Source: Alphaproteobacteria bacterium
GTDB lineage: Bacteria; Pseudomonadota; Alphaproteobacteria; MPNO01
Assembly: GCA_964291675.2 (NCBI GenBank)
Contig: OZ219866.1
Location: 416,001 to 480,000 of the forward strand
DNA length: 64,000 nt
Direction of reading: 5' to 3'
Shown here: piece after piece, positions 9,368 through 13,219 of the stretch
Position numbering within the stretch: the first letter of the stretch is position 1
How the letters are laid out: each line of letters starts with the position of its first letter
Notes under the pieces: model-generated
Databases searched by the model: none
Told to the model about the DNA's origin: nothing
What the model saw: only the letters and a program-made list of their open reading frames with translations
Translations under genes and position numbers: made by a program

Positions 9368-10597
9368 ATGGCCGACAAGACGATACTCGTCGTGGGAACC
9401 TACGACACCAAGTCCCCGGAGCTCGCCTACATGGCCGACCGCATCCGCGCGCTCGGCGGCGGCGTGCTCGCCATGGACATGAGCGTGCTGGGCGATCCCG
9501 ACATCCCGGTCGACTACTCGAAGCACGACGTGGCCCGGGCCGGCGGCGGCTCGATCCGCCAGGCGGTCGATTCCGGCCACGAGAACGCCGCCATGCAGAT
9601 CATGGCCGGCGGCGCATCGGCGCTCGCCGCCGAGCTCCACGGACGGGGAGAATTCGACGGCATCGTGATCCTCGGCGGCACCATGGGGACCGATGCGGCG
9701 CTCGACATCTGCGGGGCGCTGCCGCTGGGCGTGCCCAAATACGTCGTCTCGACGATCTCCTTCTCGCCGCTGATCCCGCCCGGCCGGCTGTCGGCGGACG
9801 TCCAGATGATCCTGTGGGCGGGCGGCCTCTACGGGCTGAATTCGGTCTGCAAGGCGACGCTCAGCCAGGCGGCCGGCGCCGTGCTCGGCGCCGCGCGGGC
9901 CGCCGAGGCGCCGGCGGAGGACCGCCCGGTCGTCGGCATGACCTCGCTGGGCTCGGCCTCGATGAAGTACATGACCGCGCTGAAGCCCGCTTTGGAGGCG
10001 CGCGGCTACGAGGTCGCCATTTTCCACGCGACCGGCATGGGCGGGATGGCGTTCGAGAGCATCGCCTCGCGAGGCGGGTTCTGCTGCGTGATGGATTTCG
10101 CCCTCGTCGAGCTCGGCAATCTGATGATGGGCTCCGTCGTCAAGGCCGGAGAGGACCGCCTGCTGGGCGCGGGCCGCGCCGGGACCCCCCAGATCGTCGC
10201 GCCTGGATACCTCAACCTGGTCCACATCCCGACCTGGCAGGACCCGCCGCCGCAATTCGCCGACCGGCCGTTCCACACCCACAACCGGCTGGTCAAGTCG
10301 GGGCTGCTCGACGCGGCGGAGCGCAGGGCCATCGCCCGCGAGGTCGGCCGGCGGCTCGGGGAGAGCCGGGGGCCCGCGCATTTCATCCTGCCCAGGCGGG
10401 GCATCGTGCAATGGGACCGGCCGGGATACGAGGCGCACGACCCCGAGGGAATGGCGGCCTTCGCCGACGAGCTCCGCAAATCCGTCGCCGCGCCGGTCCG
10501 CATGACCGAGCTCGACTGCCACATCAACGACCCGGAATTTTGCGCCGCGGCGCTGGAGATCTTCGATCGCTGGGTCGCGGACGGCACGATCGGCTGA
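9368..10597 (+). CDS. Tm-1-like ATP-binding domain protein (UPF0261)
   Basis: VGTYDTK N-terminus, GGTMGT, FHATGMGG, HIND motifs. Confidence 0.88.
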   Translation: MADKTILVVGTYDTKSPELAYMADRIRALGGGVLAMDMSVLGDPDIPVDYSKHDVARAGGGSIRQAVDSGHENAAMQIMAGGASALAAELHGRGEFDGIVILGGTMGTDAALDICGALPLGVPKYVVSTISFSPLIPPGRLSADVQMILWAGGLYGLNSVCKATLSQAAGAVLGAARAAEAPAEDRPVVGMTSLGSASMKYMTALKPALEARGYEVAIFHATGMGGMAFESIASRGGFCCVMDFALVELGNLMMGSVVKAGEDRLLGAGRAGTPQIVAPGYLNLVHIPTWQDPPPQFADRPFHTHNRLVKSGLLDAAERRAIAREVGRRLGESRGPAHFILPRRGIVQWDRPGYEAHDPEGMAAFADELRKSVAAPVRMTELDCHINDPEFCAAALEIFDRWVADGTIG

Positions 10598-10648
10598 GGC
10601 GGGAGCCGAGCCGAAGGACGCTGCTGCTCCCCCCATCGTCACCCCCTC

Positions 10649-10777
10649 CGTCATGGCCGGACTCGATCCGGCCATCCACGCGGCGTCTCCACCCGCACGA
10701 CGGTCGGACGGGAGGGGTGGCGGCGCCCGTGAGTGCCCGAAAGAGCCTCGGACTCGCTCCGGAGGCCGGGGATGACG
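10649..10777. repeat. REP family B inverted pair (second copy degenerate)
   Basis: CGTCATGGCCGGACTCGATCCGGCCATCCAC and a downstream copy ending GGGGATGACG. Confidence 0.7.
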
Positions 10778-10869
10778 GTGTAGGGCGGGGCCCTATCGAC
10801 GGTCGCGCCGAAAAGCCTTTCGCTCTTCCCCCAAATCCCCGATCTTTGCGCGGATGGTGATGCAGGACG

Positions 10870-10980
10870 GGAGGTCAGGCGCCGGTGTTCGAGGAGCCGA
10901 CGCCTCTCACCGCCTCCGTCCGGCTCGGTCTCGTGCTCGGCCTGGCCTATGGCGCGACTGCCTCCCGGCGCTCGTGCCTT
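10870..10980 (+). pseudogene. Degenerate duplicate of the RBS and 5' end of the YeeE/YedE gene
   Basis: VFEEPTPLTASVRLGLVLGLAYG vs VFEEFGFEELTPLAASVLLGLALGLAYG at 12197; shared GCGCCGGTGTTCGA. Confidence 0.85.
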
Positions 10981-11069
10981 CCGCGACGGCTTGTGCCCAT
11001 CGGTGCGACGCATAACGTGTTAACGGGACGGCGTGCTAGCCGCCGGCTCAGAGTGATTGGAGCCGAAGT

Positions 11070-11879
11070 ATGAGCCCAGATGGATGGCTCGGACTGCTGG
11101 CGGCCGCTTTGGGAGGCGGCCTTGTCGTCAAGTTCCTGGATATCCTGTACGCGGAGGTTCGGCGCCGTTCGGAGAGCTCGGAGGAGGCCGAGCGGTTCGT
11201 CGACGAGCATCTGGATCCGCTGCTCAAGGCGGCCGACGAGCTGGTGGGCAAGCTCGTGTCTTTGGCTGGCGAGGACTTCACAAGTCTCCGCAACGTGGAT
11301 CCGAATGCCGACCGTATCGACAACAACGACTTCGTGAGCCTGGTTTTCCTCATGGCAACGTTTTGGGCTAACATCGAAATCATTCGCCGCGAAGGACTCT
11401 CCGTATCGATCGTGAAGGACGTTCGCGGCCAAAGACTGCAAAGCTTCTTGAATTGCATCGAGTCTCGCGGGGTGCGGATCGTCGACCGAATTTCGCAACG
11501 CGCAGTCGGGGAGCTGATGCTCGCCAACCGCCAGGACGGCACCTTGGAGTCCCGGTTTTTCGTCGATTTCGTACGCTCGATGGAGACCGATCCAAACGCC
11601 CGCCGTTGGCTGCGGCCCTTGGCTCACGCGCTGTCGCGCACCCGCCATACATCGGAACGCCAGAGACTCTTGAAGTACGGCATCGTCATTCACGCGATGA
11701 TCGACTCGCTCGATCCCGGGTATCAGGTCACGCGACGGCGCCCTTCGTACCCGAACAAGCTGTCCAACAAGTCGTGGCGGGATCTGAAATACCGAGTTTT
11801 CGGCCAATACCTAAAGTTCGTATCGGAACCCGAAAAATATACAGGGCCGCCCAAGAGAAAGCGGCCCCGAAGAGGGTAA
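11070..11879 (+). CDS. Hypothetical protein with N-terminal TM helix and basic C-terminus
   Basis: 269-aa ORF with GGAG RBS; visibly lower GC and different codon usage than neighbours. Confidence 0.8.
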   Translation: MSPDGWLGLLAAALGGGLVVKFLDILYAEVRRRSESSEEAERFVDEHLDPLLKAADELVGKLVSLAGEDFTSLRNVDPNADRIDNNDFVSLVFLMATFWANIEIIRREGLSVSIVKDVRGQRLQSFLNCIESRGVRIVDRISQRAVGELMLANRQDGTLESRFFVDFVRSMETDPNARRWLRPLAHALSRTRHTSERQRLLKYGIVIHAMIDSLDPGYQVTRRRPSYPNKLSNKSWRDLKYRVFGQYLKFVSEPEKYTGPPKRKRPRRG

Positions 11880-12137
11880 GGCGGCGCGAAGGGACTTTGG
11901 CTCTCTCGCTTGGAGACAACGGAACGTCCGTTGGGCCGCCTCTATTCCGTTGATGTGGGTTCACATCTCAAAGCGGATCTTAGCGCGGAAGCACTCAAGA
12001 GTCCACAGCTATGCGCTCTTCCGCCAAGGGTGCCCCCGTGGAAGATCGTTGCACGGATGGCATTCCCTCCGACAGGAGCGTCTTCGGACGAAAACCCTTT
12101 TCCTTCAGGGATTATTCCTCAATCTTGAAGGTGAAGG
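11844..12137. ncRNA. Candidate structured non-coding RNA, strand unresolved
   Basis: At least seven stems readable by eye, e.g. CAACGGA/TCCGTTG, GATGTG/CACATC, GCGGAAG/CTTCCGC, AAGGGT/ACCCTT, CCTTCA/TGAAGG. Confidence 0.45.
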
Positions 12138-12196
12138 CAGCGCTACCATCGTCACGCGCCGCCCCGTGTCACCAATTCTGGGTGGAGCAAGCGCCG

Positions 12197-13219
12197 GTGT
12201 TCGAAGAGTTCGGTTTCGAGGAGCTGACGCCGCTCGCCGCCTCCGTCCTGCTCGGCCTCGCGCTCGGCCTCGCCTATGGGGTGCTGGCGCAGCGGAGCGC
12301 CTTCTGCCTGCGCCGCAGCCTGGTCGGGCGATGGCGCGACTGCCTGCCGGCGCTGGGCGCCTGGGCGATGGCGCTGGCCTGCGCGATCGCCGGCACCAGG
12401 CTCGCCGTGGCGGTCGGGCTGATCTCCTTCGAGGAGCACCGCTTTCTCGCCGCCGACCTGCCGCTCGCCTCGGTGCTCGTGGGCGGCGCGCTGTTCGGCG
12501 CCGGCATGGTGCTGACCGGCGGCTGCGCCTCGCGGCTCGCGGTTCTGGTGGGCACGGGGAATCTGCGGGCGCTGCTGGTGCTGGTCGTCTTCGCGGTGGT
12601 CGCGCTGGCGGCGATGAAGGGTGCGCTCGCGCCGCTCCGCCTCGCGCTCGGCGCCGCGTCCGTCCCGGACGGCGGGGCCTCGCTCGCCGACCTTCCGGGC
12701 GGCGAGATCTGGCCGCTGGCGCTGGCGCTGGCGCTTGCCGTGCTCGCGTTGCGCACCGCCGCGCCGCTCTCCCATCTGGCGATGGCCGGCGCGATCGGGC
12801 TGCTGGTGCCGCTCGGCTGGGTCGGCACCGGGTTCCTGCTGCTCGACGACTTCGATCCCATCCCGCTGCAGTCGATGGGCTTCACCGGGCCGATGGCCGA
12901 CACATTGTTCTGGACGGTGGCGGCGACCTCGATCCCGGCGGGGTTCGGTACCGGGCTGGCCGCGGGCGTCCTCGCCGGCAGCCTGGCGGCGGCGCTGGCG
13001 GCGGGCGAGTTCCGCTGGCAGAGCCTGGAAGGCCCGCGCCAGACCGGGCGCTACCTCGCCGGCGCGGCGATGATGGGGGTGGGCGGCGTGCTGGCCGGCG
13101 GCTGCACGGTCGGCGCCGGCCTCTCCGGCGTCTCGACGGCGAGCCTCGCGGCCCTGCTTGCGCTGGCCGCCATGGCGGGGGCGGCGCGGACCACTGGGGC
13201 GGTGCTGGAGCGGCGGTAG
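12197..13219 (+). CDS. YeeE/YedE-family sulfur (thiosulfate) transporter
   Basis: FCL motif, GMVLTGGC and GGVLAGGC repeats, hydrophobic; next to sox genes. Confidence 0.9.
   Translation: MFEEFGFEELTPLAASVLLGLALGLAYGVLAQRSAFCLRRSLVGRWRDCLPALGAWAMALACAIAGTRLAVAVGLISFEEHRFLAADLPLASVLVGGALFGAGMVLTGGCASRLAVLVGTGNLRALLVLVVFAVVALAAMKGALAPLRLALGAASVPDGGASLADLPGGEIWPLALALALAVLALRTAAPLSHLAMAGAIGLLVPLGWVGTGFLLLDDFDPIPLQSMGFTGPMADTLFWTVAATSIPAGFGTGLAAGVLAGSLAAALAAGEFRWQSLEGPRQTGRYLAGAAMMGVGGVLAGGCTVGAGLSGVSTASLAALLALAAMAGAARTTGAVLERR

Follow-up and report, generated by a model that had tools for sequence, protein, structure and literature searches.

Convergent antisense RNAs that overlap the 3' end of a toxin gene are familiar from type I toxin-antitoxin (TA) systems, among them bsrG/SR4 and txpA/RatA of Bacillus subtilis and fst/RNA II of the Enterococcus faecalis par locus. 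Type I systems with larger toxins also exist, as in SymE/SymR and RalR/RalA, where the toxins are nucleases of ∼60–115 amino acids (aa) and the antisense RNAs overlap the 5' end or the coding region. In type III systems such as ToxIN, CptIN and AbiQ/antiQ the antitoxin consists of tandem repeats that lie upstream on the same strand and are processed by the toxin, an endoribonuclease. Here we describe a locus that has features in common with each of these groups. It lies in a stretch of 64,000 nucleotides (nt) from an Alphaproteobacteria bacterium (assembly GCA_964291675.2, contig OZ219866.1, positions 416,001 to 480,000), hereafter the window, to which all coordinates refer, and consists of a protein gene, geneX (11070..11879, plus strand), and a small RNA (sRNA) gene convergent with it (11834..11978, minus strand). 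We conclude with high confidence that these form a two-part module of a previously undescribed protein and an antisense sRNA, and that this architecture is real.

The geneX open reading frame (ORF), as found in the ORF list of the window, starts with ATG and encodes 269 aa; a Shine-Dalgarno-like GGAG (11060..11063, plus strand) lies 7 nt before the start codon. In the protein, which belongs to a family without a name, a hydrophobic N-terminal helix precedes an all-helical body, and the C-terminal tail is basic. A word-indexed search returned 400 homologues at E≤1e-3. The best 120 of these 400, the protein's own record excepted, are 55–84% identical to the window protein, and among these 120 there is no Pfam domain and no name other than “hypothetical protein”. 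An exhaustive profile search gave 523 representative clusters at E≤1e-3, 121 of them at E≤1e-30; at 50% identity the family has at least these 523 clusters, and its members are ∼240–325 aa long. The ratio of non-synonymous to synonymous substitution (dN/dS) against three close relatives is 0.08–0.14. Given the homologues, the clusters and this ratio, geneX is a real, constrained gene and no chance ORF.

An AlphaFold2 model built on a 76-sequence alignment is all-helical, with a predicted local distance difference test score (pLDDT) of 94.9 and a predicted template modelling score (pTM) of 0.88; a single long helix at residues 3–67 is followed by the helical body and a small hairpin of two short strands. 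In a diverse alignment the near-invariant residues are D69, F70, W99, E131, R136, R140, Q143, R197, Q198, D215, R224, K230 and Y257, a polar, arginine-rich set which suggests a surface for binding or catalysis more than it does a simple membrane peptide. In the window protein the N-terminal segment reaches 1.84 as its best 19-residue Kyte-Doolittle mean. Across the family the median is 1.54, a value of 1.6 is reached in only 26/76 members, and a conserved Lys and a conserved Asp lie within the hydrophobic segment. Membrane anchoring is thus a plausible prediction, with a helix that is borderline across the family. An earlier sequence-only reading of this DNA fares well at this level. Translation recovers its ORF with every motif it quoted (DPLLKAADEL at residues 49–58, FWANIEIIRRE at 98–108, QRAVGELM at 143–150, MIDSLDP at 210–216 and the KRKRPRRG tail at 262–269), and the helical body it proposed agrees with the model, while its N-terminal transmembrane helix holds as a hydrophobic segment here but not as a firm property of the family. 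It had also placed a structured RNA beside the gene, at 11880–12140; such an RNA exists, not at that place on the geneX strand but as the convergent minus-strand gene at ∼11834–11978.

Nucleotide homology with relatives spans 11064 to ∼12006, passing the geneX stop codon, and every close locus conserves the block that follows the ORF. Within it the sRNA gene is a covariance-model match of 124.6 bits (cmsearch, E 5e-32). Its centre is a core three-tier hairpin (11878..11942, minus strand), drawn from comparative folding, covariation and single-sequence folding, in which a GC-rich helix P1 leads through an internal loop carrying a conserved AAC to the short helix GGAC/GUCC; beyond a second internal loop, in which CAAAG is conserved, the structure is capped by an apical hairpin that varies. 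On the 5' side of the core a single-sequence fold places a further hairpin, GAUGUG-AACC-CACAUC (11952..11967, minus strand), which lies outside the counted consensus structure and whose pairing, as judged by eye across loci, is kept while the sequence varies. On the 3' side a terminator scan identified an intrinsic terminator (11832..11869, minus strand), composed of an 11-bp stem at 11869–11842 followed by TATATTTTTC. From these elements we infer a transcript of roughly 135 nt, from ∼11970 to ∼11834, which would overlap the last ∼15 codons of geneX and for which a folding energy of −58.7 kcal/mol (z −3.97) was computed.

Two lines of evidence support the structure and the strand on which it forms. 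First, the helices covary. By eye, the stems in the 3' flanks of 52 loci differ in sequence yet remain complementary. In a 16-locus alignment made with MAFFT only, the comparative fold of the minus strand reached −27.88 kcal/mol, 11 of its 26 pairs were compensatory and there were many G-U pairs, whereas the plus strand of the same alignment gave −14.19 kcal/mol with 18 pairs and 4 compensatory ones. In this alignment 95.3% of pair cells were paired, compared with 41–54% when partners were slid by 1–3 columns, and 0–1 of 500 shuffles reached the observed values. The covariance model R1 was built from the minus-strand version of this alignment, and 48 of the 51 RNA sequences found with R1 (see below), aligned to the model, showed 94.9% of cells paired and two-sided changes in 25 of the 26 pairs (174 cells), with 0/500 shuffles equalling the result. 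These latter figures should be interpreted with some caution since the 48-sequence alignment is fitted to the model and hence leans toward the structure; independent evidence comes from the MAFFT-only result. Secondly, of 1089 pair cells 100 are G-U or U-G against only 5 that are A-C or C-A, which identifies the minus strand as the folded one. The terminator stem (helix 4) likewise covaries with many U-G pairs.

Conservation of the RNA extends both to close and to distant relatives. Its 73 non-coding nt are 74–90% identical to the window in seven loci (L002, L003, L005, L006, L007, L009 and L026) in which synonymous sites of geneX differ at pS 0.49–0.86. Divergent members from Desulfobacterales, Sedimentisphaerales, Neomarinimicrobiota and Actinomycetota keep the three-tier hairpin, the AAC and CAAAG loops included. 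As a separate observation, contig depth in the runs X1 and X2 rises to 3–4 times the baseline only over the RNA region 11871–11972, and several further contigs match just 11879–11955 at <95% identity. Such contigs point to diverged copies of the module from other organisms in these samples, with the RNA as the most conserved part. X1 also contains the complete stretch and may be where it came from.

Motifs for the start of transcription, resembling a sigma-70 promoter, lie at the outer edge of the conserved block. A −35-like hexamer, TGGACT (12000..12005, minus strand), occupies a position at which TTGACA or TGGACT is conserved in most loci and coincides with the right-hand limit of homology at 12005–12006; 17 nt after it stands a −10-like TAAGAT (11977..11982, minus strand), for a score of 8.5 in the window. 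The motif as a whole (TTGACA/TGGACT, a 17-nt spacer and TAnnnT) is found at a conserved distance from the structure. Scores of at least 8 were reached in 38/48 loci compared with 11.3% of 1008 control 70-mers, and scores of at least 9 in 19/48 loci compared with 1.4% of the same controls. The 5' side of geneX carries no conserved 5' untranslated region (UTR) or promoter: homology begins at 11064, the 5' flanks of 52 loci are unrelated, and geneX often begins a few bases behind a co-directional gene.

The overlap between the two genes has left a mark on the protein. The terminator stem of the sRNA sits within geneX codons ∼258–267, and the strong conservation of the GPPKR..RP end of the protein follows from this position. 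In members whose terminator lies outside the ORF the GPPKR..RP tail is missing. Two loci (L010 and L012) have an earlier stop codon that is straddled by the terminator hairpin, and in five others (L036, L037, L038, L044 and L052) a U-run comes directly after the core hairpin and the protein is without the tail. The tail accordingly reflects, at least in part, constraint at the nucleotide level.

The protein gene and the RNA are found together. With R1, a minus-strand match at the geneX 3' end was obtained in 51/58 sources at E≤1e-3. Three of the loci that R1 missed (L036, L037 and L052) give the same three-tier hairpin followed by a U-run in single-sequence folds, and L046 is less clear. Both plasmid copies examined (2/2) carry the sRNA. 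Of 61 related genomes, 4 contain geneX and exactly these 4 contain the RNA, each as a single copy, and within these 61 neither was found outside one genus; the window's own genome has one copy of each. A scan of one genome per species across 185,579 species found 56 geneX loci, a lower bound since the scan relies on two peptide patterns. Most are in Alphaproteobacteria, and the remainder are in Gamma- and Betaproteobacteria, delta-type lineages, Actinomycetota, Sedimentisphaerales and Neomarinimicrobiota.

Signs of mobility and decay accompany this distribution. The guanine-plus-cytosine (GC) fraction is 0.54–0.65 over ∼11000–12300 and 0.69–0.80 on both sides, and the geneX region is compositionally foreign; across loci, geneX GC is below both flanks in 37/46 for which both flanks are available. 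Five plasmid records match geneX, and a transposase, replication initiator or integrase domain adjoins it in seven loci (L004, L007, L010, L034, L038, L044 and L048). Eight loci retain a scoring RNA beside a geneX that is broken or cut down to a stub (L004, L008, L011, L019, L051, L054, L055 and L056): L004 and L011 have a premature TGA at codon 6, the gene is split in L008, L019 and L051, and only a C-terminal stub remains in L054, L055 and L056, inside long contigs. One chromosome carries an intact module (L026) and, ∼10 kb away, a stub of residues 211–264 with an RNA copy (L055, E 6.5e-28). Two independent insertion sequences separate the two parts and alter the protein C-terminus; an IS1595-family transposase element (L004:3905–6188) and an IS21 IstA/IstB pair (L048:4723–7429) each lie at the exact junction of ORF end and RNA gene. 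Taken together, the computational data show a module that is strictly linked, patchy and horizontally spread. The sequence-only reading of geneX as an uncharacterised, solitary and horizontally moved gene is supported.

The neighbours of geneX are heterogeneous, and include DNA polymerase III alpha, phosphoenolpyruvate (PEP) carboxykinase, aminotransferases and transporters. Immediate neighbours were called in 48 loci per side, and Pfam was run on 48 upstream neighbours, 41 downstream ones and 3 additional ORFs. In only ∼9 of ∼50 loci is an immediate neighbour a gene of known or candidate defence function, eight from PADLOC (L006, L010, L015, L016, L020, L023, L025 and L041) and one added by Pfam (L029). 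Several of the nine are “PDC” candidates that lack validation, and three generic ATP-binding cassette (ABC) or helix-turn-helix (HTH) matches were left uncounted. In five sphingomonad loci (L039, L040, L042, L043 and L047) geneX starts 3–18 nt after a ComM-like (Mg_chelatase/ChlI) gene, which reflects either one old, vertically inherited insertion or a preferred site; in L039, L040 and L047 a convergent HxlR-type regulator follows geneX. On three near-identical conjugative Rhizobium plasmids of ∼280 kb (L092, Rhizobium sp. B21/90) geneX comes after a gene for a DUF3732 protein and one for a 1275-aa hypothetical protein, and a Ser/Thr kinase gene faces it. This plasmid neighbourhood may be a defence-type island.

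In the window the module lies next to a gene for a YeeE/YedE-type sulphur-transport protein, intact from ∼12197 and downstream of the module (PF04143 on the orthologues in L003 and L004). The 5' end of yeeE is duplicated on either side of the module (10876–10990 and 12188–12372; 77–90% identity with indels). The left copy (10876..10990, plus strand), delimited by direct repeats D2, D4 and D8 and by alignment with L003 and L004, is degenerate; its remnant ORF (10885–11073) ends in a TGA that overlaps the geneX ATG (ATGA, 11070–11073). What precedes the remnant corresponds to the sequence found natively upstream of yeeE in the congener L004. The module precedes yeeE in L003 and follows it in L004, and in G010 it is found ∼5 kb downstream of yeeE, beside a gene for flavocytochrome c sulphide dehydrogenase. 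Since the association with yeeE recurs in four congeners in differing order, the module is probably an old resident of one rearranged sulphur-oxidation locus within the genus. Further upstream, ∼10620–10790 holds an intergenic dispersed repeat of roughly 100–140 nt. When 10000–10990 was used as a DNA query, the window's own genome returned 79 matches and one congener 67, almost all of them falling on this repeat, which looks like a repetitive extragenic palindromic (REP) or miniature inverted-repeat transposable element (MITE)-type element. A weak Acido-1 match at 10617–10677 (19.9 bits against a gathering score of 50) was the sole Rfam signal in 10400–12600.

Searches for a known family, fold or phage link to geneX gave no relative. 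The best E values were 0.18 against Pfam, 0.18 against PHROGs and 0.08 against NCBIfam (12.5 bits against a cut-off of 225), none of them assigning a family, and PADLOC-DB v2 returned 0 families at E≤10, so that no known or candidate defence protein model was matched. With the structural model, nothing was found at E≤0.001 by Foldseek in the PDB, nor among the viral folds of BFVD. VIA-align against 48,161 chains had its best Z, 7.7, for the ClyA pore (151 residues aligned, root-mean-square deviation 3.5), a value below the tool's caution line for helical proteins, with generic helical bundles ranking next. ESM Atlas held unnamed clusters only. No fused form was found at E≤0.001 among 8000 scored candidates of 532–2000 aa, and 13 family members of longer or odd length have no Pfam domain. 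A tblastn search of 50,697 phage records gave no match. The one hit of a profile search of the PDB, 9lni “ZZ1” (E 7.5e-4), is a Lys/Glu-rich helical alignment which we take as compositional. For the RNA, cmscan of 10400–12600 on both strands (E≤1) gave nothing at 11834–11978. A search for the RNA away from geneX, by an 18-nt conserved word, matched 2 viral and 15 metagenome loci, of which only L064 encodes the protein; the other 16, both viral contigs included, have no flanking similarity and are chance matches. In the full-text literature, at the level of search results, nothing was found on the geneX family, the accessions of the plasmid copies or a comparable module. The likeness to P2-like lysogenic conversion proteins that the sequence-only reading proposed is thereby not supported (PHROGs, phage records and BFVD all being negative), and neither, with PADLOC, is membership of a known defence family. 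The Foldseek comparison it had suggested as a check gave no identification.

Our tentative preference, by analogy with described systems, is for an antisense-RNA-controlled toxin-like or defence module of type I-like geometry, with a far larger protein. On the basis of architecture and distribution, “defence or addiction module” is the most attractive reading. The module moves and is kept as one ∼0.95-kb unit (11064–12006). According to this hypothesis geneX, having no conserved promoter of its own, would be read from whatever lies upstream, and in the window probably from the captured yeeE promoter and start, possibly with translational coupling. The sRNA, complementary to the geneX mRNA over its 3' end and 3' UTR, would lower the level of that mRNA and restrain expression through duplex formation with RNase cleavage, through interference by convergent transcription, or through both. 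The protein, probably tethered by its hydrophobic N-terminal helix, would be harmful or growth-arresting upon failure of the RNA, and the pair would constitute an addiction or abortive-infection type module with 3'-overlapping type I geometry and a much larger toxin-like partner. This fits a distribution that is patchy, mobile, decaying and sometimes plasmid-borne. Moreover, the strong conservation of the RNA's internal loops suggests that the RNA is also recognised by a protein, for which geneX is a candidate as the only co-inherited protein.

Several observations, however, weigh against this reading. geneX is unlike the type I toxins in being 269 aa long, under strong purifying selection and furnished with many invariant Arg, Asp and Gln residues, and the latter suggest a ligand-binding or enzymatic protein. 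The N-terminal hydrophobic helix, as stated, is borderline across the family, there is no PADLOC match, and about four fifths of the loci have no defence gene as immediate neighbour. Transcription of the sRNA is read from motifs, and the promoter in the window has 8/12 matches, below the threshold of a generic scan (9 of 12). The sole RNA library covering the region (X5) consists of unstranded contigs, with one 152-nt contig at 11286–11437 and low depth on 11922–11972. There is no convincing excess complementarity of the sRNA to the geneX ribosome-binding region: the cognate mean is −38.4 kcal/mol against −36.8 kcal/mol for non-cognate pairs, the median cognate rank is 17–19 of 41, and kinship together with shared GC content could account for the permutation p of 0.004. 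Finally, two intact, highly divergent genes (L049 and L053) have no detectable RNA, and the asymmetry of decay, 8 loci against 2, is partly expected from target size (∼800 against ∼140 nt).

The alternative that survives best, doubtful as we hold it to be, is that geneX encodes an ordinary accessory protein, non-toxic and membrane-associated or ligand-binding (for instance in the envelope or in stress), and that the sRNA tunes its level or insulates downstream genes from read-through, with neither addiction nor defence involved. The strong purifying selection on geneX with its many conserved polar residues would be expected of such a protein, as would the lack of a defence-family match and the predominance of housekeeping and metabolic genes among its neighbours. 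All four carriers in the genus, too, have the module beside or within ∼5 kb of yeeE, which speaks for long residence over repeated invasion. An accessory role sits poorly, however, with a gene this patchy (4/61 relatives, and 56 loci from 185,579 species genomes). GC that is usually below the flanks, plasmid copies, frequent decay and the absence of conserved partner genes add to the patchiness, and together these favour a selfish or conflict-related gene. Plain tuning would also leave unexplained why the RNA loops are conserved across phyla.

A further reading, which we judge unlikely, combines elements of two described types. In such a hybrid type I/type III conflict module the sRNA would pair with the 3' end of the mRNA and would also be bound by a membrane-tethered, Arg-rich and helical geneX protein of new fold. 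If the RNA were lost, for instance through phage-induced shut-off of transcription or through plasmid loss, the freed protein would arrest or kill the cell. This reading takes the structured sRNA as conserved across at least five phyla.

Less probable again is a pure RNA-protein partnership, with the sRNA as the ligand of an Arg-rich geneX, either as a type III-like antitoxin or as the cofactor or guide of a ribonucleoprotein. Such a partnership would account for the loop blocks CCC-AAC-GG and CAAAGUC (minus strand), which stay the same across groups as far apart as Alphaproteobacteria, Sedimentisphaerales, Neomarinimicrobiota and Actinomycetota even as the helices covary, and geneX is the sole item co-inherited with them. 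In divergent members the RNA is wholly outside the ORF, which makes the overlap with the coding sequence dispensable, and geneX has the invariant or near-invariant R136, R140, Q143, R197, Q198, R224 and K230. No RNA-binding fold or family was recognised in geneX, however, no tandem repeat array of the type III antitoxin kind accompanies it, and conserved loops could equally serve a host RNase, a chaperone or a kissing contact with the mRNA.

That the 3' structure acts at the level of DNA, as a single-stranded recombination site (an attC-like cassette end) or as a transposon end, we regard as very improbable. The unit does resemble an integron cassette, being promoterless, ∼0.95 kb long and limited to one ORF, with structure at its 3' end; it is the complement of the coding strand that folds, DNA too would tolerate G-T pairs, and the plus-strand GTTGGGC at 11929–11935 fits GTTRRRY. 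Yet conservation continues for ∼70 nt past the GTT to 12005–12006, through a further hairpin and a promoter-like motif, the AAC is unpaired in an internal loop and has no GTT partner, and no RYYYAAC was seen at the expected R'' position when core sites were inspected by eye. Nor is there a cassette array, and the immediate neighbours include no IntI (one Arm-DNA-bind_3 domain occurs in L034). The element is present in a single copy per genome, and in both clades a U-run follows the hairpin, as for a terminator. Finally, a 3' UTR structure or terminator of the geneX mRNA on the plus strand is scarcely credible and is rejected on strand asymmetry, for although the window's plus strand folds well too (−56.7 kcal/mol, z −2.66), its comparative fold is half as stable, 100 pair cells become A-C mismatches on that strand against 5 the other way, and no T-run follows any plus-strand hairpin, an A-run instead preceding the terminator hairpin.

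What these data provide, whichever reading prevails, is a protein family of at least 523 clusters with no name, domain or structural relative, tied one-to-one to an RNA motif that is absent from Rfam and whose covariation support is as strong as that of many accepted RNA families. The RNA predicts how geneX is controlled and so gives an experimental handle on an otherwise opaque “hypothetical protein”, for which cultured carriers exist; candidates are Methylobacterium radiotolerans JCM 2831 (plasmid pMRAD07, locus tag MRAD2831_RS63925), Rhizobium sp. B21/90, Mesorhizobium montanum MSK 1335 and Chelativorans intermedius LMG 28482. If the antisense-RNA-controlled module that we favour were toxic or protective, it would bring effectors that are large and folded, from environmental and symbiotic Gram-negative bacteria, into the range of RNA-antitoxin systems. 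If it were neither, the locus would be a clean case of a conserved cis-antisense regulator whose terminator shapes the C-terminus of the protein it overlaps. The hybrid reading, if true, would add a new class of RNA-governed conflict module with an effector of unseen kind.

Among known systems, integron cassettes share with the module a promoterless single-ORF unit of <1 kb and a 3' imperfect palindrome in which the non-coding strand is folded. The module differs from them in having no cassette boundaries, core-site pairing, array context or integrase, and in the promoter- and terminator-like signals that flank its structure; neither R''/R' base pairing nor an array beside intI was observed, core sites being judged by eye and the surroundings from immediate neighbours. 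The likeness to type III systems is closer. Both couple one protein gene strictly to a structured RNA that its product may recognise, and both have a mobile, patchy distribution. Unlike type III antitoxins, however, the RNA of the module is single, convergent and downstream, no RNase family or fold is recognised in its partner, and a repeat search of 10400–12700, for which Tandem Repeats Finder was not used, revealed no tandem RNA repeats.

In geometry the module is most readily compared with type I systems, whose general definition is given in PMC6563280. A gene with a hydrophobic N-terminus stands beside a cis-encoded small RNA of the opposite strand that has its own promoter, here predicted from motifs; the two overlap at their 3' ends, and the whole is compact, self-contained and mobile, and also occurs on plasmids. 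A type I toxin is a small hydrophobic peptide, usually under 60 aa, whereas geneX is 269 aa, is folded in the helical model and has many conserved polar positions. geneX also lacks a conserved promoter and 5' UTR, its RNA has a conserved three-tier hairpin with loops that are invariant across phyla, and in divergent members this RNA is entirely off the ORF. SymE/SymR and RalR/RalA differ from the module in toxin size and in the position of the overlap, and no sequence or fold likeness between their toxins and geneX was found. What they have in common with the arrangement proposed here is the principle that control by an antisense-RNA antitoxin extends beyond membrane peptides to folded protein toxins.

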